NCBI GenBank assembly: GCA_010093995.1
Contig: ML992502.1
Coordinates: 1,171,001 to 1,235,000 of the forward strand
Direction: 5' to 3'
Origin: Elsinoe ampelina
Taxonomy: Eukaryota
Length of the DNA stretch: 64,000 nt
The notes under the pieces: generated by a model
Databases searched by the model: none
What the model was told of the DNA's origin: nothing
The model's input: the letters and a program-made list of their open reading frames with translations, nothing else
Made by a program: the position numbers and the translations under genes
Part shown: in pieces, positions 6,322-45,057 of the stretch
Numbering within the stretch: the first letter of the stretch is position 1
Layout: each line of letters opens with the position of its first letter

Positions 6322-7256
6322 AAAACGCAGTAATCGGACGACGGCAGTACTGTCATTGCAAAGCGGCGTCTTGACGCATGAAGGGGAAAAGAGTCTTGCA
6401 AGAGTAGATATCCAAAATCACCAGGGGGACTTAGGTACTGTATGCTACGCACAGCTGGGAATGACGAGGATACGAATGACATCTTTACCCTTTGATTTTC
6501 CCCTCCTTCTTTCACTCCCATCCTCCATCTAGTCAGGACATCGTGGATGGGAAGAGTGAGAAGTATAAAATCAAGCTGTTCAGGAGAAGGCTGACAGCTC
6601 CGGTGGGGGTCTGACACCTCATCCTCCTTTATCACGTACTTCATCACTCTGCATGGCTGCAAGCCACCTAGAAGGACTGCAATTCCATGCGAAGATTCAA
6701 GCTCTTCAATTATGACGATTGTCACTGAGAATCGACGCAGTTCGCCATGTGCTGACACGGTGTTGACACGCAGATACCAAACCCCACGAATTCGCCACCT
6801 TGCCGCTGCGTCGACTCTACTCTTGTGATAGACGCTCCTCAACACACAGTTTATCGACAGGAATCAGCGACAACAATAGAGGAGTATGGTACGCGTCTTC
6901 CAGTGCACACTTGCATCATTGTTGCACAACACGTCTCGATTGTCGATGTCTACCTCTCCGGATCCCCTCAAGTCCGTTCGGAACTGCAAGCACCTTGCAC
7001 GTCAGTCGCCCGCAGGAACAGCATCCCATTGATCGAGGGACGAGCATTGCCCACAAACATTCGTCTGGTGACCAGAATTTACCAGAGGTTGACGACTGCC
7101 GACCCCGAGACTTACGCGGCAGCTGCTGTAATGCATCCTCATCGGAGTCGTGGATGGGTGGGTATGGTTTCTTTTGTCCATGTATTTCAGGACTGATCTT
7201 CTCTCTCTCTCTGAATTCTGATTGAAATCTCTCACACATCACACGTGCGCATCAAG

Positions 7257-8074
7257 ATGAAGTTCAATACAATCTCTAGCGCTATCCTTCTCTCCTCAGC
7301 CAGCGTGCTTGCTGATGGAGGACCGTGGGGCAACAGAGGCGGTCCCGGCGGCTGGGGAGGAGCAGGTCTACCTTCATGCTTCGTGAGACATTCGTTCTCA
7401 TCCTCGTACGCTCCACTGACCACTCCAGGACAACTGTGATGACGACCTCTCCACCATCAACTTCTCCCAAGGCGGTCTCACCACCCTCTGCGCCAACACC
7501 ACCCTCGTCGACACAGTCAACACCTGCATCTCCACCTCCAACTGCAGCACCACCGACAAGCAAAGTCTGTCCCCTCCCCCTACCAACACCTCTCCGCCCC
7601 CCCGCTGACCCTCCACAGACACCTACCAAGCCCTCGCCCAAATCTGCGCCAACGCCGGCTCCCCCCTCACCGCCTCCCCAGAAGCGACCTACTCCGCCAC
7701 CTCAGGCGGCACAAACTACCCCACAGGCACAGGCCAATGGGCCTCCTACGCCTCGGCCTTCAGCACCACGACCTCCCCGCCCTCCGGCCCCTGGCGTCCA
7801 GGCAACGGCTACGGCCCCTTCGGCCCCAACGCAGCAGACAACGGCTACGGCCCATGGGCGAACGACCACTCGGGCGCATGGACCAACGGACCCTGGACGC
7901 AATGGTGGGGTGGAAGCGCCTGTCCGCCGTCGAGTTGGTCGGGGTGGACGAGCGGGCCGTGGGGGACGCAGGCGCCGTGGACGAGTTGGACGGCGTGCGC
8001 GGCGAGCTCGACGCCGACTGGGGTGGTGACTCGTACGGTTACGACGGGGGGTGTGCGGAGTGTGGTTACGAGTA

Positions 8075-8124
<50 letters not shown>

Positions 8125-8170
8125 GGGAGCGTGTTTGGTGGGGGGGTTGGTGGGGATTGTAGGGTTGTGA
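7257..8170 (+). CDS. Secreted, probably GPI-anchored CFEM-like (6-Cys) protein with Trp/Gly/Pro-rich region; introns 7383-7428, 7565-7618; frame broken by poly-G
   Basis: Signal peptide MKFNTISSAILLSSASVLA; LPSCF|DNC..LC..TC..NC..IC Cys spacing; hydrophobic tail VGACLVGGLVGIVGL* after the G run, in a different frame. Confidence 0.65.
8076..8123. repeat. 48-nt poly-G homopolymer
   Basis: Direct count in sequence. Confidence 0.95.
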
Positions 8171-8682
8171 GATGGGAAGAAGGGGGACGGGGGTTGAGAG
8201 CGGGGGTCCGGTGGAGGTTTAGTGGGCTGTGATGCGAGATTGTGTGCTAGTAAAACAATGATGGCGGTTTTGCTATTTGGTTTCGATCGTCGAGAAGTTC
8301 TTTGAAATCGAACATACTTGTTCGACCTTACAAGTTCCAATCCATGTCGTCAAAGACACTGGATTGAACGCATGCACGACTCGTTCCCTCAGCCCCCATT
8401 CGCTGGTCCCATCTCCAGCTGAGAATGATCTGCGCTCCGTCACCACTATGATCTGCACCGGCGTATAAGTAGCACGAAGCTACCCACCCGAGCGGGGTCA
8501 GAGAACACCAACAACACAGCTCCGTTTCCCGCATGCATGAAGCTGAAAAGGGAGGTAAGACAATCTATCTTAACCGGTGCGGCACACTTTTTCATTCCTA
8601 AATAAACCCACTACCTCAACCACCTTGCTCCCCCTCCCTATCCCGCACTGCTCCCCCCAGCCCTCTACACAAATCCAACACC

Positions 8683-10227
8683 ATGCTCCCCCTCCCCCTC
8701 ACCACCACCCTCCTCCTCCTCCTCCTCCCACCCCTCTACCTCCTCCTCACAACCCTCCACACCCTCCTCCTCTCCCCGCTCCGCACCATCCCCGGCCCCC
8801 TCCCCGCCCGCCTCACCAACCTCTACCGCTTCCTCTCCGTCCTCCGCGGCCACCACCACCTGACCCAACGCGCCCTCCACGCCCGCCACGGCCCCTACAT
8901 CCTCCTCGGCCCAAACTGCATCTCCACAACCGACACATCCCTCATCAACGTCCTCTACCCCCTGCAGAAACCAAGGTGGATCAAGAGCGAGTACTTCCGG
9001 ACCTCGGACTTTTTGCACCCGGTCACGGGGGAGGTTCTGCACGCTTCTGTCTCGGTGAGGGACGAGGAGGAGCACACGCGGATGGTGAGACCGGTGGCGC
9101 GGTTCTACACCACGACGGGGGTGTTGCGGTACGAGAGCCGGATGGACGGGGTGGTGCGGCGGTTGCTTCTGGAGCTGGAAGGGAGGTTTGTGGCGCCGGG
9201 AAGGGAGAGGTGTGAGATTGGCGAGTGGTTGCATTACGCGGCGTGGGATTTGATTGCCAAGATCACGTTTGGGAGGGAGTTTGGGTTTTTGAGCGAGGGG
9301 AGGGATGTGAGGGGTTTGATCGGGCAGAGTGAGCGGAGTTTGGATTATATGGCTTCTGTTGGGCAGATTCCGTGGTTGGATGGGTGGGTGGGGAAGAATA
9401 GGTGGGTGAGGTTTCCTGTCGGGACGATGGCTGAGGGGGTGAGATTTGCGAAGGAGCAATTGGATGGGAGGCTGAGTGGGGAGGATGAGCATGATAGGGA
9501 GAAGGAACCGGATTTGTTGGATGATTTTCTTGGGTTGAGAGAGGAGGATCCGAGTATTACTGATGAGAGGTTGGTGCAGTGGGCGTTTAGGAATGTTGCT
9601 GCTGGCAGTGACACGACTGCGATAGAGATGCGGGCTGCTGTCTACTACCTGGCGAAAGACCAGGCAGCTCAGCGACAGCTGCAAGAGGAGCTGGACCAGA
9701 CAGGCGTGAGTGAGAAAGTGCGACGGGGCGACGGGCTCAAGTACAAGGATCTGTACACCTTGCCATACTTGGGAGCAGTGATACACGAGAGTCTCAGGAT
9801 GCATCCCGGCATTGCCTTGAGCTTGGAAAGATTGGTGCCGAGCGAGGGATACATCCTGCCTAATGGCACGTACCTGCCCCCGGGTACGATTGTTGGCATT
9901 AATCCGGCAGTGATCAATCGGTTGCCAGAAGTCTTTGGGGCCGATGCCGATACTTTCAATCCCGAGCGGTGGCTGCAACGGCCGGAGGAATCGAACGAAG
10001 AGTTCAAGGTGAGAATCGGCCGGATGAAGGAGACTGACATGACCTTCGGTCGTGGCAAGAGAGTATGTGCTGGCAGACACATTGCTATGGTAGAGATGTA
10101 CAAGGTCATCGCTCCATTGTTCTCAACCTTCGGGATTCGACTGGTCGATCCGAAGAAAGAGTGGAAGACCAAGAACAGTTTCTTTCATCGACAATGGGAC
10201 ATGGATGTGTACCTGGAGAAGAGATGA
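8683..10227 (+). CDS. Cytochrome P450 monooxygenase (intronless, 514 aa)
   Basis: N-terminal membrane anchor and PGP hinge, AGSDTT I-helix, ESLR (ExxR), PERW, heme motif FGRGKRVCAG. Confidence 0.96.
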   Translation: MLPLPLTTTLLLLLLPPLYLLLTTLHTLLLSPLRTIPGPLPARLTNLYRFLSVLRGHHHLTQRALHARHGPYILLGPNCISTTDTSLINVLYPLQKPRWIKSEYFRTSDFLHPVTGEVLHASVSVRDEEEHTRMVRPVARFYTTTGVLRYESRMDGVVRRLLLELEGRFVAPGRERCEIGEWLHYAAWDLIAKITFGREFGFLSEGRDVRGLIGQSERSLDYMASVGQIPWLDGWVGKNRWVRFPVGTMAEGVRFAKEQLDGRLSGEDEHDREKEPDLLDDFLGLREEDPSITDERLVQWAFRNVAAGSDTTAIEMRAAVYYLAKDQAAQRQLQEELDQTGVSEKVRRGDGLKYKDLYTLPYLGAVIHESLRMHPGIALSLERLVPSEGYILPNGTYLPPGTIVGINPAVINRLPEVFGADADTFNPERWLQRPEESNEEFKVRIGRMKETDMTFGRGKRVCAGRHIAMVEMYKVIAPLFSTFGIRLVDPKKEWKTKNSFFHRQWDMDVYLEKR

Positions 10228-10259
10228 TTCGAGTTCCTCTTTGGCGTGCTCCAAGTCAA

Positions 10260-11708
10260 CTACTCGACCAGGAAGCGATTTAATAGAGCCACGTTCCAGT
10301 CTTGGAAACGACGAGCATCATTCGGCAGAATACTGTTGGCTTGTCCCAGCTCATCGACAAGAGCGGCTTCCAGTGTTGCGGGCAATGTCAGCTCATCGAG
10401 GGATATGTTCTGTGAGTTCAGCTTGGTGGCTTCTGCTCTTGGCTGGATCAAATGTCGCTTGTAGAAAATCTTGACAGCGGGTTCGGGTTGCCCTGTATAG
10501 GTGGATAGAGAGTAATACACTAACGGAGAGAAGATCCAAATCTACGCTGTTCAGCATAAATGAGTGGTAGAGATTGAGAGTACATACGGTAAAGTCATTG
10601 TACCTGCCCTGAAACTTGCGAGCTCCAGAGGTATCAATGAGAGCTAGAAGATACGACGAGAGCCACTTTGACACTTGATAATGCTCTTCCGAGTTGTCAA
10701 CTTCGGACTTGATACGCTTAAGTAGTGGCTTGAAGAGTCTGATGCCCGAGCAAAGGCTGTCTACCTCTCCAAGTGGTGAGCCGCACTTGCTACAGGCAAC
10801 GCTGCCAGTAGTATCTGATACCTGAACCAGTCAGCCTTGGGGAGACTCTCGACCGTATCACGCAGGTCACGAGGCATGTATCTTTCCGAAATCCTTTGAA
10901 AGCCAATTCTCTAGCAGTCCAAGTGAAATGAAAGGACCAGATGGGGTAACCACGTCACGAGACGAAGCTCGGAGGGCTACCTAATCATCGTTGCTGTCGG
11001 GCGAATTGTATCGGAGTTGTTCCGTAGTAGCGGGTGTGGACCCAGGGAAGGCCTCCTTCTTATTGCCCATGATATGGATATTGGAGAATCCTAGATTATG
11101 AAACTTACTGTAATGTTCGTACAGTCCTCTTGTGACACCAGGATTGTCAGTGTGTCCACATACCCTACTCCGGACCTTGCCGTGAGCTTGCTGGAAGCAC
11201 TGTAGCCTTTGCCATTGACTTGATCGTGATCATGGTCTTCTTCGGGCTTGTGACAGTGCCAGAGATCCATCATCTCCGCCCACCCTTCCGAGGGGAGATC
11301 TTTATAGGACTTTACAGTCTGCCGATCCAATAAAGGACCGTTACATTCGTCTCCGTTAGCAGACTTGCCTCCACAACAGAAACACGAAGATTGTCCAAGT
11401 TGGCTAGCGGTCCATAAAATCTTGTTCTGTTCCGAAGTGGCCGTGGACCGTCTTGATCGTGATAGACCTACCAGCCGTGAAGTCCTTGAAGTGGCTGGCG
11501 GCGATGGCAAAAGCTTTGTGTCATGTTGCTCCGAGACAGGAGTGTAAAGTCTGATTCTCTCTTCCTGTCCATGATGTTGCAAGTTGATGGCATACCCAGA
11601 GTCAGTAATTTGTAATCTGGTGTTGCTGTCAAGGCCGGCTTCGATCTGGACGACCAGATTTGTGGACTTCACATATGGTAGATGTTCTGCGAATAGCACG
11701 ACCGCCAT
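10260..11708 (-). CDS. HECT_2 / E2C-binding protein (IPA1/UBE3D-like); exons 11708-11109, 10821-10588, 10541-10260
   Basis: DLPSEGWAEMMDLWHCHKP motif, CSKC, IWIFSP after splicing. Confidence 0.85.
10874..11070 (-). ncRNA. Intron-encoded box H/ACA guide RNA, predicted U2 snRNA Psi42 guide (snR81-like)
   Basis: Hairpin GGGC/GCCC, GGAG/CTCC, TTCC/GGAA with pocket strands AAGAA and GATAC complementary to U2 GUAUC-U-G-UUCUU; H box ACAGCA 15 nt below the pocket top; second hairpin followed by ACA+3 nt. Confidence 0.8.
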
Positions 11709-11948
11709 GGTCAATCGATTTGAGAATTGTCGATTATGTTCCGTGTCATAATGCCATCGCCATATTCGTATTAGATCAATCAGCGTCGCTCGCGTGTCAG
11801 GTGTAGGTTCGAGAGGTGAAGCTTAAGAGGCGAAGAAGTCATGACATGGATGCCAAGACAAAGATAGGGTTTCACATAGTAGCACTTTATCCGCAACCGT
11901 ATGGACGAAAGTATGATATTTCAGCTGGCTTGTCTGATCGTGATATAT

Positions 11949-13443
11949 CTAGTAGTACGAGCTTCGACTCGCACTATATTCGCGGCCGGTGCCCGGGAAT
12001 GCACCCACTGGCTCTGCTGAACTCCCTTCATCCCCACTGTCATCCTCATCGCCTGTGAAGACTTGCTGGGAAGGATCTACTGGACTTCTCATACTGCTCA
12101 AGATCTCTGGTGCCAGAGTTGGTGGTGTATACGGAGCCGGAGTGTGGTATTCTCGTCCCGATGGCATTTGCGCAAGCAGCGGCTCAAAGGCCGGAATGAC
12201 CTGTACGTTGACCTATGCCTTGTTAGCATCGTGATGTGTCGATGTCCGCGAGCCTTACAGTATCGTTCGACTTGACCCATTTCGCCTCCAACCACTCGAT
12301 GACCCTGGTCTCCTCAAACTTGCCAGCATCCATGCCCCAATCGTCCTTGCCCTTCTCCACTTTCCGATCCTCCCTCTTTTCTGTCCAGCTCTGCTTAAGA
12401 CCTTTGAAACCCTTTCGCTTCCCGCTGTCGTCGTCAGATAGAACACCAAGCTCCCTTTTAGCTCCTCGCAACCACGCGATAGCTTCTCCGGTCTTTCCAG
12501 TGTCCTCAGCGGCGATAGCGAACCATCGAGCGGCTTTGGCTCTTGCCGTCTTCCGAAGATCGTCAACGTATTTGACGAGATCATCATCGATCTTGTTTGA
12601 TCCAAAACCTCCAGACCTAGGAAGCAAGCCTGAAGCTTTCGCAGCATGATCAGCAGCGGCAATGCATATCCTGGCGTAGAGGTTCGCTCTCGTCTTCGGT
12701 ATACTCGGAGCTGAAATCATCCATGACTTGCTGTCCTTGTCTCTGTCATCTGCTACAGCTGCAGCATAAGGATCGTCTTTGAGTGTGACGGTGATGGTTG
12801 CTTCTGCAAGGGCCAGAGATGCGAGAGCTGAAGCAGTGGTAGTGGCGACATCAAGTGGTGGTGTGGCGTCCACCGTCGGGTTGAGTGAAGTGATGTAAGC
12901 ATGTATGCTATATGTATCCAACAAATGCTTCATTGCCGTTGCAAGGAACGAAGCTCGTACTTCCGAGGATGGTGAGATGGTACGTTGTAGCTGAAGCAGA
13001 CTTGATCGAGCCAGGTGACTGTACGTGTATGCTAGTGTCTGGAGCACGAATGCTAGCTCATTACGTAGGCCCTTGACTTTGGCTCGTTGTGGCTCGCGAC
13101 CTGGCACTCCGGCGCTGAGCGTGGTCCTCCATTCTGTGATGAGATCTTTGGTTTCTGTTATGGAGACCTGTACTTGACCTCCATAGCTTGTGATACTTTC
13201 AGCGTCTGGAGCGCTGTGATATATGCTTAACAGATAAGGTAAGTAAGAATTGAGTGCATCTTGTATGACGGCAATGTTCGTGGCTTGTGATGCAGGAGGA
13301 AGTCGTTTGTGTTTCTTCAAAACATCACGAACCAGTGCTCTTTGTGATGTGGCTGTCAAAAGCAGTGAAGGATGGCTGTCGCTCCTGAAAGATGTCGTCA
13401 AGGCTGTTGCAGATGTGGTTGGGAATGTGAATGGGAACGGCAT
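11949..13443 (-). CDS. palC: pH-response regulator PalC (Bro1-like domain); intron 12213-12258
   Basis: N-terminus MPFPFTFPTTS, KDDPY, GEAIAWL, KSNDT|VNVQ..MPSGRE and C-terminal YY, as recalled for PalC. Confidence 0.85.
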
Positions 13444-23608: not shown

Positions 23609-24807
23609 ATGAAGTTCTATACATCTTTTCTGATTGCAATCCTCGCGATTACAGCATACTACGCCAGAGAACAGATACAAACAATTCTGAGACCAGCTCT
23701 GCACGCTATTAATACCAGAGGCACGAACCAGAGCTTCACTACCAGCGTCTCGCCCGAAATGTCCGCACCACAAAACTCATCTTTCGCTGGACTACCAGTC
23801 ATCCCGCCCAATGATCCTTCTCTCACATCTACCGCATCAAAACCACGAACTATCAAGAAAGTCTTCGAGGCCGTAGAACAAGCTGAAGGTGCCGGTGCCA
23901 GAGTCCGCCGCAGCGTGGGAACGCCACACCTTCGCAACCTCACACCTTTTCTGATGTGCGACAACTTCGCTATCGCCCCTGGCGCGGGCTTCCCCGATCA
24001 TCCTCATCGTGGTCAAGAAACCATCACTTATCTCCTCAAAGGTGCCGTCGACCACGAGGATTTTGCCGGGAACAAAGGCACTATCCACACGGGCGATCTG
24101 CAATTCATGACAGCAGGAAAAGGAATTGGTATGAGTGAAGTCCTCTGCTGGTAGCAGGTTCGTCCTGATGAACCCCTTCGCTAACTTTTGCAGTGCATGC
24201 CGAGATGCCTTCCCAGAACCCAGACGGATCAGAGAACGTCGGCATCCAACTCTGGGTCGACCTGCCTGAGCGCCTCAAGAATTGCGAGCCGAGGTACCGC
24301 GATCTCAAAGCCAGCGAGATTCCCACCGCGACCAGCCCAGACGGAAAGGTCACCGTGAAGGTCATCTCCGGACGATCATACGGTGTCGACTCTCTCCAGG
24401 AACTCGCCTACACTCCCGTGTGGTTCCTCGACGTGACTGTCCAACCAGGCGGCACATTCAGCGAAAACATCCCCAGCAAATGGAACAGCTTCATCTACAC
24501 CTTGAACGGGACAGCAACCTTCGGGTCCGGCAGCGAGGCACGGAAGGTCAACCAGTACCACAACATCGTCTGGAACCAAGAAGACGACACGATCGTCGCA
24601 GCCGTGGATGAATCGGCCAAGGAAGCAGCGAGATTCATCCTCGTGGCCGGATTGCCACTCGACCAGAAGATCATCCAATACGGCCCGTTTGTGGTCAGCA
24701 AGCAGGAAGACATTTACAAGGCCATGTTCGACTACCAGAGCTACAGCAATGGCTTCGAAAGGGCAAGGGATTGGGAGAGCGAGATCGGGAAGACGATGGT
24801 GCATTAG
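23609..24807 (+). CDS. Pirin family (bicupin) protein; intron 24129-24193
   Basis: EGAGARVRRS, GFPDHPHRGQETITY, MTAGKGI|VHAEMP, QLWVDLP, YGPFV. Confidence 0.93.
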
Positions 24808-34084: not shown

Positions 34085-37024
34085 ATGTTTCGCACCGCCC
34101 TTCGCTCGAGCACCCGAGCGGTGGCCGCCGCCTCTGCTACCTCAAGATTCGGAGTGGTACGTGACAAACCTGCCCGTGTCCACAACACCCACCAATGGAC
34201 CTTCAAACATCTCGAAAACGCCTCAATGGCTTTGCAATATCTATGACAGAGGCTGACAGAGGCATTGACAGACCCGCGCCACCCCAGCCGTCGTCCAGGC
34301 CACCCGAAGCTATGCTGAAGCGAAAGCTTCCCCGACCGAGGTGTCCTCCATCCTCGAGCAGCGCATCCGCGGTGTTCAGGAGGAGGCATCTCTCGCCGAG
34401 ACCGGTCGCGTTCTTTCAGTCGGGTGTGTACAAAATCGAAAAAGAATGGAAGAATAAGGACTGTTGTGCTGATGAACTACAGTGACGGTATCGCCCGTAT
34501 CCACGGCATGAGCAACGTCCAGGCTGAAGAGCTTGTCGAGTATGGCAAACCGACTCGGAATAAATGCTAGATTCTGACAGATGACCAGGTTCGCCTCAGG
34601 TGTCAAGGGAATGTGCATGAACCTCGAAGCCGGCCAAGTTGGTGTATGTCAAAGATCCTTGCATATCATGCCAAGCTCGAAGTTCTAACATCATCCAGGT
34701 CGTGCTTTTCGGTTCCGATCGTCTTGTCAGGGAAGGCGAGACTGTCAAGCGTACCGGCCAGATTGTGCGTTTCTACCATGTTCAGAGGACAGAACAAGTC
34801 TAATGTTTCCAGGTCGATGTCCCAGTCGGCGAGGCTATGCTTGGTCGTGTCGTTGACGCCCTCGGTCAGCCCATCGATGGCAAGGGACCCATCAAGACCA
34901 CCGAAAAGCGCCGTGCTCAGCTCAAGGCTCCTGGTATCCTGCCCCGCCGCTCCGTCAACCAGCCGGTGCAGACTGGTCTCAAGTCAGTCGACGCCATGGT
35001 GCCCATCGGCCGTGGTCAGCGCGAGTTGATCATTGGTGATCGTCAGACCGGAAAGACCGCTGTCGCCCTGGACGCCATCCTCAACCAGAAGCGTTTCAAC
35101 AACTCCAACGACGAAAACAAGAAGCTTTACTGCGTTTACGTTGCCGTCGGTCAGAAGCGTTCTACTGTCGCCCAGTTCGTCAAGACCCTCGAGGAGAACG
35201 ACGCCATGAAGTACTCCATCGTTGTCGCCGCCACTGCTTCCGAAGCCGCTCCTCTTCAGTACATCGCACCATTCACTGGAACATCGATCGCCGAATATTT
35301 CCGTGATAATGGCAAGCACGCCGTCATTGTCTTTGATGACTTGTCGAAACAAGTTAGTATTCATTTCCTTTCCCCTCCCTTAACATTACAGTTTCACCGA
35401 AATTCTTTCGAGGTCTGCCAACCAGTCGAGGTCTGCCGAGCAAGAAACACTACCACACAAAGTCCACTTGCCATTCTGTCTGGGCTGCTGTCACATTTTC
35501 TGGAAGACACTTACCATTATGGTCACCACGCGATGGCTACGTGCTGGTAGTTTTGCACGCCCGGAAGGTTTGCTTACAACACTCCCGCCATAGAATGCAA
35601 GTCCACCTCCTTGCAACCGCCTTGGACGACTCGATTTAACAGGGACGTCAAGACTGCAATCCTACCAGAAAGCGTAACGTCCATTCTACCGCTTGAATCA
35701 CCAAGTCTCCAGTGGTAGTGTTGAGCCTTGCACACTACCAGGATACATATTCCAGCTTCTCTCCACAATTCGCAATATGTCAAGTGGTAGTGCCAACCCT
35801 TGCACGCTACCGATCCCCCAATCCCTGATTCCCGCTGTCTCTGGTTGAGACTCGTTGGTAGTATCAAGTCTTGTATACTACCAGGATCCGCGCCTTCCAA
35901 TCCGTCCTCGGATTTTGTCAGCTGGCAGATGGTAGCACCAAGTGTTTCAACACTGTCAGACTTCTGAGTGATGGCAGTTCCGTCAGTCCGTGGTAGTGTT
36001 CGGCTTCGCATACTACCAGGGCTCATGGTCTTTGTCTGCTTCTGGAGTTATAGGTTTACCAACACGCACGGACGGGCCAAACTACCAGTCCGTTGTGGCT
36101 TCCTCAACATGTTCGCCTCTCCTTTTACAAATTGGAAGTTTCCACATCGAATGGCAGACCTTCTGGACTGGCAGACCGCAGACCTCGGGATACAAAGGCA
36201 GACCTCTGACAGCCATTCCATTTGCACTTACTACCAAACTTTCGAACGTGACTAACAAAATCCCAGGCCGTTGCCTACCGTCAAATGTCTCTCCTGCTCC
36301 GTCGTCCTCCTGGACGTGAGGCCTACCCTGGTGATGTCTTCTACCTTCACTCTCGTCTCCTGGAGCGTGCCGCGAAGATGAACGACAAGCTCGGTGGCGG
36401 CTCGCTCACTGCCCTTCCCATCATTGAGACCCAGGGTGGTGATGTGTCCGCTTACATCCCCACCAACGTCATTTCGATCACTGATGGCCAGATCTTCTTG
36501 GAATCCGAACTCTTCTACAAGGGTGTCCGCCCAGCCATCAACGTCGGTCTTTCTGTCTCCCGTGTCGGTTCCGCTGCTCAGCTCAAGGCCATGAAGCAAG
36601 TCGCTGGTTCCCTCAAGCTATTCTTGGCCCAGTACCGTGAGGTCGCCGCCTTCGCCCAGTTCGGTTCCGATTTGGATGCCGCCACCAAGCAGACCCTGAA
36701 CCGTGGTGAGAGGTTAACTGAGCTCCTCAAGCAGAAGCAGTACAGCCCAATGGCCGTCAACGAAATGGTTCCTCTCATCTACGCTGGTGTCAATGGTCAT
36801 CTCGACAGCGTACCGGTCGCAAAGATTCTCCAATGGGAGTCTGACTTCCTCGCTCAGTACGTATACCCATGCTTGATATGTGCTCCACTCGCTAACACGT
36901 CTACAGCCTCAAGAGCGACCAGGCTGATCTCCTAGCCACCATCGACAAGGAGGGTGCCCTCAGCAAGGACCTTGAGGCCAAGCTCAAGGATGTCGTCTCC
37001 ACTTTCACCAAGAACTTCTCCTAG
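34085..37024 (+). CDS. ATP1: Mitochondrial F1 ATP synthase alpha subunit; 8 exons (34085-34156, 34272-34423, 34483-34539, 34589-34643, 34699-34764, 34813-35352, 36267-36856, 36907-37024)
   Basis: GDRQTGKT P-loop, [42 protein letters not shown]. Confidence 0.98.
35713..36018 (+). repeat. Array of five ~28-nt hairpin repeats with unique spacers inside ATP1 intron 6
   Basis: TGGTAG..CTACCA-type inverted repeats start at 35713, 35785, 35856, 35930 (degenerate) and 35991. Confidence 0.85.
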
Positions 37025-41356: not shown

Positions 41357-43319
41357 GGTACGAAGGTGAGAGGTCGTGACGAATTGGCGGTGAAGGAGGG
41401 TTTTTTTTGGATAGGCGGGATCAAAGTCCGTGGCGGGAGGCTGGGTCGACAGAATATCAAGCCTTGATCGCCAACAATAATAACATCATGGTCGATTGAT
41501 TCCTCGAGAATAAGCGAATGACTGACGTGGATGATTCAGAGATGCAGAGACGGGTGCGTAGAGGATATGTGGTCCGGATCAGGATGCGGCGTGGTTGCTC
41601 ACAAGGACGAACGGGCAGACGGCAGCATCAGGTACAGAAACACACAGGATGGGGACTCGCAGGGCACAGGAAGACCGGAAGAATTGTCAACAGAGTGCAC
41701 TGCGGCAGGGCACGATCATGTGTAGGAGTCGGGTAGATATGCAGCAAGAATGGGAGGGCGAGAACCAATCGAGGGGAATAGCGTGCTGCCACTCTGGATA
41801 GTGCGAACACAGTGCCTAGACCGAGGGAACCAAGAGGGTACACATGACTGCACGCGCTGCAAGCTCCTCCAATTGTGGTGCGGCCGAGGTGCCATGATGC
41901 GACCGGTTGTTGATGGGCACAGGTGACCTCGACCATTCTCGGATGCGACGCCTGCATTCGAGTCTTGTCCAAGGAATCCTGCTCCTGTACAGAACTACTG
42001 TAGTACATAGTCTTCAAGTTGGCAGAGTGGTCGTCTTTGAGTGCAGCGCGAGTCATTTTCTGATCATGTCCTAGTTGACCTGGCTGCAGATCTCGACGCC
42101 AGACCCGGGTCGCTGTCCAGATGACTTTGGTCTTCATCGGGCGCCATCAAAACATCGAGATCTGCCGTCACCATAAATTTCATCATGAATCCTACCAGGC
42201 CCTGATGATGTTTTGTCGTGGTAATCAAGGTTGACGGGCGAAGGAGGCCCGTACCGCCAAACAAGACAGTGTCTGATAGCGCCTGGACGCAAGGGAGAAG
42301 AAAGCCGGTTGAACAACGCAGGTAAAACCATATACGCGGCCGTGTGGTTTTTGACCAGTCCGAACATGCCTTCAACGCCTGGGCCGCGTAAACTTCCTGT
42401 GTTGAAGTCTGGTACCTGTGGTAATTTATTCTCAGGCATAAACATGTCACCTCGGTCCGCAGCACGTTGCCGCGCACTGCACCTTAATCTCACACAGCGA
42501 ACAAAGGGGATCCTGTCGGTATACAGAGCTTGATCTGGACATGGCGTAACGTCGACGAGGACCAGTCCGTACAGTCTGTGGTACTACAGTGGCTCGACAC
42601 ACACTGCCTGGCAGTTGACGCTGTCTGGTAGTTGGCGTCGCCTGGCAGTAACACTCTTCTCGTCCACCACCCCTCACCTCCATGCACAACGAAGAGTAGC
42701 TGCGCGCGCATCCCTCGTTGTCCATTTCCACATACACCCGTCCGCGGTCGTCAATACCACCCATCTGCTACAATATATTAACATTGACAAGCTCGCAAGG
42801 TTGTGCAATTTTCGGGTCATGCGACGGCGATACTCCGGCTCTTGCACCACAAAGCGTCGTATGCCTCGACGCCTCTCTCGGGACCATGTGGAGGGTGGTA
42901 TACATTAGTATTCACCACACGTCAATTACATCGTTGCCAAGAGCGCATCGTTCCCGGCCGCGCAAGCATTCTGGCCTCATAGCTTAATCACGTTTGCCGT
43001 TGAGGTCAGTGCGGTCCAAAAAACATCCAGACCACATTGTACCTGCGCACGACAAGCATTACCGACGCACGAACTCTTTCAGCGTAATCTCCTCCAATTT
43101 GTTTGGCTGTCCTCGTTTCATCTGCCTGTCTCGTTACGACGACTTGTCGTCCGTCAAACGTCAATCGCCGAGGGGTTGTAGTGTTGTCGTTGTACGTGGC
43201 CTACGCTGCTGTTGATGCTCTGTCAATTATAAGAGGCACGGTAAGTCCTGGTATGATCAAACCATCCAAGCATTCCCAAGCTCTCCAAGCAATCGGCCAA
43301 GCTCTATCATACTACCACA

Positions 43320-45057
43320 ATGGTTAAGATCAACACCTCCTTACTACTAGGTGCAGGCCTCGCTGGCTTTGCTGCCGCACATCCTGGCGAGCACGAACAT
43401 CACGATGAAGCTGCCGTCGCAGCCCAGATCGAATACGGCAAGATGATCAAGAGGGGTCTTCAGAACTGCGAAAGCTCCCCTGCCTACCAGGCTATCCACG
43501 CTCGCGCTCAAGAGCGTCGCTGGGAGAAGGCCCAGAAGCTTCGCCAGAAGAGGGGCATCGCTCTCGAAACCCCATACAAGGCTCGCCTACGAAAGCGTGA
43601 CTCGGCATCCCTCAACACCTTCGCTGCGGAGAACCACAACAAGACTGGAGAGGGCTACACCACCGACACCTCCTCGTCCGACCTCTTCGCTAGCTACAAG
43701 AATTCCTCTTGTATCTTGACTCCCGAAGTCACTTACGGTCCCTACTATGTCTCCGGTGAGCACTATCGCACCAACGTCGTTGAGGACCAGGAGGGTGTTC
43801 CCGTTCATATCGAGTATCAATACATCGACGTCGAGACCTGCGAGGTCGCTACCGGTCTTTACATCGAAACCTGGTCCACCAACGCAACCGGTGTCTATGC
43901 TGGTGTTGTCGCTTCTGGCAACGGTGATCAGTCCGATACCTCAAACTTGAATAAGACCTTCCAGCGTGGTGTCACTAAGGTCGACTCCGACGGCGTTGGA
44001 TTCTTCGTAAGTACTACCAGAAATCTCAAGTCTGGTAGTTCTTGACCACTAATACTACCAGGACGTGCTCTTCCCTGGCTATTACACCGGTCGTACCACC
44101 CACATTCATCTCATGACCCACCTCAACGGTACCGTCTTCGAGAACAAGACCTTCCAATCCGACAATGTTGTCCACGTCGGCCAATTGTTCTTCGACGAAG
44201 ATCTGATTGACGCCGTCAACGCCGTCGCCCCTTACAACACCAACACGCAAACCCGTACCTACAACGCAGACGACTCCATCGCCCAGCAAGGTGCCGACAA
44301 CAACTACGACCCCTTCCCCGACTGGACCTACCTCGGCTCCGACATCTCCGACGGCATCCTCGCCTGGATCGCCATCGGCATCAACAAAACCGCGAGCACC
44401 CAAGTCACCCCCGCCGCCTACCTCACCTCCTCCGGCGGCGTCGCCAACACCAACAGCGGCATGGGCGGCGGCTCCGGCGGCCCTCCCTCGGGCGGCAACG
44501 GCACCTCAGGCGGTCCCCCCTCCGGTACGCCCCCCAACGGCACCGGGTCCCCCGCCAGCGGCAGCGGCAGCGGCAACGGCAGCACGGCCACCGTCTCCGG
44601 GGCCGCCGTCTCCGCCACCGGCGGTAGCACAGGTCAATCCGGCGCAGGTGGGCCACCCAGCGGCACTGCCCCGTCAGGCGGAGCAGGCGCTGACGGTCCC
44701 AGTGGCACAGGCGGCATGGGCGGGCCCAGCGGTGTTGGCTCTAGCGGGCCTAGCGCTCCTGGGAGCAGCTCTGTAGCCACCTCCTCCTCCTCGGTCGCGC
44801 CCACCACGACTTCCGCGCGCGCCAGCACGACGACGACCAAGGCTGGGAAGGCGAAGACGACGACGACGACGACGAAGAAGGTGAAGAGTAAGACCACGAA
44901 GAAGGGGAAGAAGGGCAAGACGACCACCATCACTACGAAGACGAAGAAGGGGAAGAAGACGACTACCAAGACGAAGAAGGGGAAGACTACCAAGACGAAG
45001 AAGGGCAAGACGACGGCGAAGAAGACTAAGGCTACTGCGGCTGCTGGGAAGCAGTAG
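43320..45057 (+). CDS. Secreted intradiol ring-cleavage dioxygenase-like protein with G/S/P linker and K/T-rich tail; intron 44007-44061
   Basis: Signal peptide plus HPGEH, GPYY, GVY, PGYYTGRTTHIH, GQLFFDE. Confidence 0.9.

Follow-up and report, generated by a model that had tools for sequence, protein, structure and literature searches.

The stretch of DNA analysed here (the window) comprises 64,000 nt of Elsinoe ampelina (assembly GCA_010093995.1, contig ML992502.1, positions 1,171,001 to 1,235,000 of the forward strand) and includes ATP1, the gene encoding the mitochondrial F1 ATPase alpha subunit. An open reading frame of 887 aa in the window shares 97% identity with a protein assigned by NCBI to Elsinoe batatas, the next named matches belonging to other Dothideomycetes, which places the window in an Elsinoe-like Dothideomycete. 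ATP1 is interrupted, where DDLSKQ gives way to AVAYRQ, by a spliceosomal GT..AG intron of 914 nt in phase 0 (35353..36266; this and all other features described below are given on the plus strand), which was recognised from the sequence and from the contig joint 35352->36267. The intron is flanked by an upstream exon of 180 codons ending in ...DDLSKQ (34813..35352) and by a downstream exon beginning with AVAYRQMS... (36267..36856), both delimited by contig joints and by tblastn to relatives, the former also by translation. The donor GTTAGT (35353..35358) is unique among the gene's seven donors in having T at +3, the branch-point sequence GACTAAC (36250..36256), predicted from the consensus, would place the branch A 11 nt 5' of the acceptor G, and the acceptor AG occupies 36265-36266. 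The remaining six ATP1 introns measure 115, 59, 49, 55, 48 and 50 nt, the 914-nt intron being 8-19 times the length of these neighbours (48-115 nt). Its two ends carry short repeats that are complementary to each other, and these repeats most likely belong to a fold-back module that may be zipped shut in the pre-mRNA.

Removal of the long intron is documented by contigs from four runs (X3, X4, X5 and X8) among 23 listed, none of which is recorded as RNA. The exact joint 35352->36267 is present in contigs of all four runs, and the other six introns are removed in the same contigs; since these contigs skip the 914-nt intron together with six others, they represent transcript-derived assemblies. 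The intron, which the first-pass annotation of this stretch had described from the DNA letters, is real and is removed by splicing. Run X3 also contains an unspliced contig of 973 nt (35324-36296) with zero differences, at a word depth of 88.8 as against 6600-13000 for the exon and joint contigs of that run. No alternative joint inside the intron, including any that would indicate nested or recursive splicing, occurs in the contigs of the four runs, although contigs drop rare forms. The first 39 nt of the intron (35353-35391) resemble a complete mini-intron (GTTAGT ... CTTAAC ... ACAG), and no joint using it was found in the contigs of the four runs. An isolated contig of 227 nt in run X4 (35916-36142; depth 2.4, one G>A at 35986) leaves the rest of the intron uncovered; as a sign of a stable intron-derived RNA it is too weak to call, and inspection of 35916-36142, by eye only, revealed neither an H box nor C/D boxes of an H/ACA or C/D small nucleolar RNA. 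Runs X4, X5 and X8 also contain a second spliced ATP1 transcript (34541-36450), which is about 85% alike, stems from another organism and has a lower depth.

Near the donor, TCGAGGTCTGCC occurs twice, as copy A (35408..35419) and copy B (35426..35437), while four copies in the opposite orientation precede the branch point, namely C1 (TGGCAGACCT, 36152..36161), C2 (TGGCAGACC, 36169..36177), C3 (GCAGACCTCGG, 36178..36188) and C4 (GGCAGACCTC, 36197..36206). All were identified in the sequence and by a repeat scan, and every element that had been reported earlier, the six copies as well as GACTAAC at 36250, is found in its place. The string GGCAGACC is present in 6 copies in the window, 5 of which fall within the intron, where 2 minus-strand copies at the 5' end complement 3 plus-strand copies at the 3' end. 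A count of 6 is also attained by 7 of 100 shuffles, so that the window-wide abundance of GGCAGACC lacks significance; it is the clustering and the orientation of the copies that stand out.

The complementarity of the intron ends was assessed by counting exact complementary k-mer pairs that link the initial 130 nt of the intron to the 130 nt preceding the branch point. As controls, 130-nt segments were paired at identical spacing in the remainder of the window, which gave 1652 pairs. The ends share 21 pairs of 8-mers, 12 of 9-mers and 5 of 10-mers, as compared with control maxima of 12, 5 and 3, respectively (mean for 9-mers, 0.09), and none of the 1652 controls reaches the observed count at any k. 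The end-to-end complementarity is non-random and lies far above chance. Duplex energy did not discriminate in the same way: the value obtained with RNAduplex for the 130-nt ends (-59.9 kcal/mol) is lower than that of 300/300 mononucleotide shuffles. Equally low or lower values are nevertheless reached by 162 of the 290 pairs taken from the real window, which makes the test uninformative.

The repeats form part of a larger symmetrical arrangement. When the left 300 nt of the intron are aligned to the reverse-complemented right 300 nt, one colinear chain results (~35404-35570 against 36212-36060), with a score of 41.3 versus 19.6 +/- 3.6 (maximum 30.7) in 200 shuffles. Along this chain A stands opposite C4 and B opposite C3, and two degenerate units of the ~18-nt family, ..ACACTACCAC.. 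and ..CACTTGCCATTC.. (35440..35478), align colinearly to C2 and C1 in reverse complement, ..ACACTACCAC.. (35447-35456) facing C2 and ..CTTGCCATTC.. (35463-35477) facing C1. Ten units, including two more inside the intron, align to one consensus, GAGGTCTGCCA, and they are spaced by 18 nt in the left arm and by 17, 9 and 19 nt in the right arm. The repeat scan further detected a second-tier inverted repeat (35469..35483 with 36142..36156; 15 nt, 80% complementary) and a third-tier one (35539..35563 with 36069..36093; 25 nt, 80% complementary). The interior is occupied by a tandem array of five ~71-nt units (35695..36043), four of which contain a 9-bp hairpin, TGGTAGTRT..10 nt..AYACTACCA, while the fifth (35909-35972) is degenerate; Tandem Repeats Finder (TRF) reports no tandem array at a score of at least 30, the ~71-nt and ~18-nt arrays being too diverged. 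Additional half-sites of the array hairpin motif are found at 35447, 35545, 36081 and 36230. The ~800 nt between 35404 and 36212 are most likely a fold-back, in which inverted arms of ~18-nt units surround the tandem hairpin array. The ends of the intron owe their complementarity to this arrangement, each arm being an inverted copy of the other, which points to a DNA-level origin, and the asymmetry of two against four copies most likely reflects the decay of two left-arm units of a ~4+4 array.

Such an architecture could have arisen and persisted with no bearing on splicing. The insert would in that case be a neutral relic, left behind either when a fold-back or miniature inverted-repeat transposable element (MITE)-like sequence was inserted or when sequence was duplicated locally, in inverted as well as tandem fashion, its pairing being incidental; this explanation is the main rival of the one favoured below and is considered somewhat less probable. 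The arms of Foldback and MITE elements are composed of short tandem subrepeats, are unequal between the two ends and enclose a non-coding middle. The terminal inverted repeats of the insert are likewise internally repetitive, its arms are colinear and decayed, and its units constitute a family with tandem ~18-nt and ~71-nt periodicities. Long, internally repetitive inverted terminal repeats are characterised as typical of Foldback-like transposons (Galileo/Foldback) in excerpts of PMC3573991, and repetitive elements inserted in regular fungal introns are on record in excerpts of PMC3609843.

Other observations fit a relic less well. Unlike Foldback and MITE elements, the insert has neither a transposase nor a target-site duplication: by inspection, no duplication of at least 4 nt abuts the arms (flanks ...CGAAATT and CCATTCC...), although decay could have erased one. 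The sole flanking direct repeat, CTTTCGA at 35405 and 36239, is at chance level by estimate, and the borders carry no inverted ends. No second copy of the intron or of the insert is present in the 64-kb window. The orientation split is perfect, with 2 copies one way at the 5' end and 4 the other way at the 3' end, and all six outer copies retain an intact core of 7-8 nt, the similarity between the arms being far lower outside these cores. In further checks on origin, Rfam returned nothing at gathering score in the window and, in 35200-36400, two chance-level matches (E 0.72 and 2.3), Pfam gave no match for three intronic open reading frames (ORFs), and no fungal family of the Foldback type was identified. 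Judged from the sequence, the intact cores would fit constraint or, equally, recent local duplication, the sample being too small to decide.

Folding of the whole intron gives a minimum free energy (MFE) of -278.2 kcal/mol, compared with -245.4 +/- 7.6 kcal/mol for 20 shuffles, none of which is equally stable (z -4.3). The end-to-end helices A-C4 and B-C3 are found in both the MFE and the centroid structures, and each attains a pairing probability (P) of up to 0.90 in the full-intron partition function, whereas the alternative registers B-C1, A-C3 and A-C2 attain 0.10, 0.07 and 0.03. As single duplexes, all eight combinations of A or B with C1-C4 fall between -18 and -25 kcal/mol, and the isolated bipartite duplexes are isoenergetic, A+B yielding -42.1 kcal/mol with C3+C4 and -43.1 kcal/mol with C1+C2. 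The predicted helix consists of parts of 10-12 bp and 11 bp and encloses ~740 nt. Counted from its strong part, it leaves linkers of 51 nt on the GTTAGT side and 43 nt on the GACTAAC side (total 94 nt), and with the weak outer pairs 35405-35409 / 36208-36212 (P ~0.4) included, linkers of 46 and 37 nt (total 83 nt). For transcripts ending at 35700 or 35900, A and B are predicted to be weakly paired locally (mean P(paired) 0.5-0.6).

The favoured explanation, advanced tentatively and with a confidence just short of even, is that a fold-back repeat module within the ATP1 intron would be zipped shut by its best-kept arm units in the manner of a zipper stem. The module (35404-36212) would thus sit inside an otherwise ordinary intron, and once transcribed into pre-mRNA, A and B would pair with C3 and C4, these being the units that are best preserved, to form a bipartite helix (~-42 kcal/mol when isolated) that closes off ~740 nt and leaves ~51 nt from donor to helix and ~43 nt from helix to branch. 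A spliceosome used to introns of 48-115 nt would then meet a donor-to-branch path of ~100 nt. The spare copies C1 and C2 would provide redundancy, such that any 3' copy could capture A or B during transcription. From the modelled pairing we infer that the helix may form in vivo and may help splicing. The stronger proposal, that selection maintains the amplified GAGGTCTGCCA units because they act as a multi-register zipper with redundancy, is regarded as unlikely.

Zipper stems have been described in long introns of S. cerevisiae, including RPS17B and others, in excerpts of Rangan et al. (2025, PMC12350175). As in the yeast introns covered by these excerpts, the complementary segments in ATP1 are located just 3' of the donor and 5' of the branch of an intron far above the normal length, and a stable helix is predicted to shorten the donor-to-branch path. 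The excerpts place zipper stems at least 10 nt from the donor and no fewer than 20 nt away from the branch point, with a total linker of 42-85 nt. The distances in ATP1 are 46-51 nt and 37-43 nt, within these minima, while the total is borderline, at 94 nt for the strong helix or 83 nt when the weak outer pairs are counted. Unlike the yeast cases, the host is a Dothideomycete with introns of 48-115 nt rather than a budding yeast, and the helix predicted here is bipartite, is built of amplified repeat units with spare copies and closes ~740 nt. According to the same excerpts, some zipper stems do not promote splicing and their sequence conservation is poor.

Several findings weigh against the zipper-stem explanation. 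The repeat origin accounts for the complementarity without selection, and the linker total of the strong helix exceeds the 85-nt yeast limit. The contigs give no expression levels, splicing ratios or efficiency, and rare forms are dropped from them. In a transcript ending at 36140, A and B gain an internal competitor partner (35955-35977). The predicted proximity of the intron ends, moreover, is shared by control sequences. GTTAGT at the donor and ACTAAC at the branch (36251-36256) are exact reverse complements, and because the unconstrained fold pairs the two, the unconstrained donor-to-branch path is an uninformative measure; the path was determined under the constraint that neither the donor nor the stretch from branch to acceptor may pair, 11 interior shuffles and 11 other 914-nt segments of the window serving as controls. 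The constrained MFE path is 74 nt for the intron, as compared with 7-47 nt for the shuffles and 11-60 nt for the segments, all 22 controls thus folding their ends closer than the intron does, and end-to-end pairs with P>0.75 also appear in 3 of the 11 shuffles and 6 of the 11 segments. This generic proximity agrees with excerpts of PMC3017586, in which prediction places the two ends of any large RNA near each other, and it counts in favour of a neutral relic.

Because shuffles and window segments fold their ends closer, the thermodynamic fold cannot mark the intron as special; its distinctive feature is the exact, GC-rich, repeated complementarity and not the predicted end proximity. The first-pass annotation had proposed that the repeats pair, which the model upholds (A-C4 and B-C3, each P ~0.9), and had called for a fold of the whole intron, which recovered the end helices in the MFE and centroid structures but with a path longer than that of every control. 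Its estimate of an effective distance of 100-150 nt is numerically matched by ~106 nt (57 nt between the donor G and the helix plus 49 nt between the helix and the branch A), a proximity that is, as noted, not distinctive.

Related loci provide a further argument against the zipper-stem explanation and in favour of a relic. A metagenome scan with the upstream exon listed 80 loci, the first 30 of which were examined by tblastn and the eight most similar of which (79-91% identity) were checked by blastn and by eye. No intron at the ATP1 site was detected among the first 30 loci or in any of the seven closely checked loci that span the site; the intron position is therefore lineage-specific, as far as seen, and a relic reading would regard the intron or its content as lineage-specific. 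Five of the spanning loci (L001-L005) are contiguous across the site, and the other two, L006 and L029, are contiguous there as well but have introns of 58 and 53 nt, respectively, 32 nt upstream and in a different phase. Since L002, L005, L006 and L029 carry other short introns, they are clearly genomic. The closest metagenome relative, L001:3661-5242, belongs to a contig of 28.7 kb; its two exons are 91% and 98% identical, and none of the gene's seven introns is present in it. The eighth locus, L009:448-4455, is 91% identical over the exon and stops after ..PFTG at a GTAAGT-like sequence before the intron site; no downstream ATP1 exon follows within the next 4 kb, Pfam on its ORFs was uninformative, and the interruption could reflect an intron of great length, a pseudogene or chimerism of the contig. 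No stray fungal contigs were recovered from prokaryote genome contigs, all 80 loci listed there being bacterial.

The unequal number of copies at the two ends had earlier been taken to allow alternative registers that could act as a switch. According to this explanation, alternative registers would alter the helix-to-branch distance or expose and hide signals, thereby tuning ATP1 splicing, and both the equal energies of the isolated bipartite duplexes and a yeast precedent, in which the RPL7B zipper stem competes with an alternative structure (excerpts of PMC12311795), could be cited in its support. The full-intron ensemble nevertheless assigns the alternative registers P of at most 0.10, and the copy asymmetry is accounted for by the decay of the two left-arm units, which remain recognisable in their degenerate form. 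Furthermore, a single joint is seen for the intron in four runs, though contigs drop rare variants, and no effector is known. A regulatory switch is accordingly given very little credence; for C1 and C2, such a role appears highly improbable, redundancy being assumed instead.

It has also been considered whether the cluster of CTGG(C/T)AG-type motifs represents an intronic DNA enhancer or a site for an RNA-binding protein, or whether the hairpins feed a small-RNA pathway, all of which is thought improbable. Related motifs are indeed abundant in the window, where ACTACCAG occurs 16 times versus 1.2 expected and ACTRCCAG 20 times versus 4.0, and the same hairpin recurs in another intron (44009-44063). 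However, GGCAGACC is not enriched outside the ATP1 intron (1 other copy versus 2.9 expected window-wide), several ACTACCAG matches are in-frame GAC-TAC-CAG coding sequence, and the strict orientation split would be unexpected for DNA sites. Three CTGG(C/T)AGT copies at 17-nt spacing in intergenic DNA (42608-42649) might be added in favour of binding sites, but the surrounding region is not significantly similar to the intron, since the comparison of the 914-nt intron with 42450-42750 does not rise above background (score 22-25.5 versus 21.2 +/- 2.9). Candidate identities of the ACTACCAG motif are a cis element and a short repeat that is dispersed.

The two sites elsewhere in the window may be described as follows. 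The intron at 44009-44063, 55 nt in length, interrupts a neighbouring gene (…GVGFF / DVLFPGYYTGRTTHIHLM…) that we take to resemble an intradiol dioxygenase, and it reads GTAAGT-ACTACCAG-..-CTGGTAGT-..CACTAAT-ACTACCAG. It shares the hairpin motif of the ATP1 intron and is the best match to the unit profile elsewhere in the window (E 0.062). The pattern GGTAGT-N8-24-ACTACC has 4 matches in the window versus 0.03 expected. At the intergenic site (42603-42649), a palindrome, ACTGCC/TGGCAGT, precedes CTGGCAGT, CTGGTAGT and CTGGCAGT, which are set exactly 17 nt apart; this is the period of the 3' repeat units in the ATP1 intron. Copies of ACTACCAG are also located just upstream of likely start codons, at 23738, 43311 and 53328, and others lie in non-coding DNA.

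Two groups of unusual fungal introns invite comparison with the ATP1 intron. The symmetrical sister (stw)introns of Hypoxylaceae, stw standing for spliceosomal twin, are described in excerpts of Fekete et al. (2021, PMC8469720) as multi-copy introns of 93-207 nt that are similar across genes and in many cases have nested donors, with inverted repeats of 45-55 nt that reach the termini; the symmetry is there said to be unnecessary for splicing. Shared with these excerpted cases are the filamentous-ascomycete host, inverted repeats that could render the intron RNA largely double-stranded, and the lack of flanking target-site duplications and of an Rfam family. Unlike them as excerpted, the ATP1 intron is one intron of 914 nt whose arms begin ~50 nt inside each end, and it shows no nested splicing (one joint in four runs) and no sister copy in the window. 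Introner-like elements (ILEs), according to excerpts of Collemare et al. (2013, PMC3609843), are about twice as long as regular introns and exist as many near-identical copies in unrelated genes. Common to ILEs as excerpted and the ATP1 intron are the occurrence in Dothideomycetes, a length above that of regular introns, lineage-specific positions and an unusually stable predicted structure, which for the 914-nt intron is expressed in the z of -4.3 and in the absence of any equally stable sequence among the 20 shuffles. The excess in length, 8-19 times the neighbouring introns, is far from the roughly twofold excess given for ILEs in the excerpts, and the multi-copy trait has no counterpart within the 64-kb window. 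No literature linking Elsinoe with introners was found.

What the module means for the biology of the host depends on whether its helix matters. If it does not, the insert is an ordinary repeat relic in an intron. If it does, the ATP1 intron would be a natural non-Saccharomyces example of RNA structure rescuing an oversized intron, in which fold-back arms supply the structure for free, and it would bear on the tolerance of fungal introns to insertions and growth. Should the zipper prove to be selected, an intron-definition fungus would be keeping a structured insert of 800 nt within a gene that is both essential and highly expressed. It would then represent a zipper stem outside the budding yeasts, born from fold-back repeat arms, and a mobile or duplicated palindrome would have brought with it its own 'splice me out' structure.

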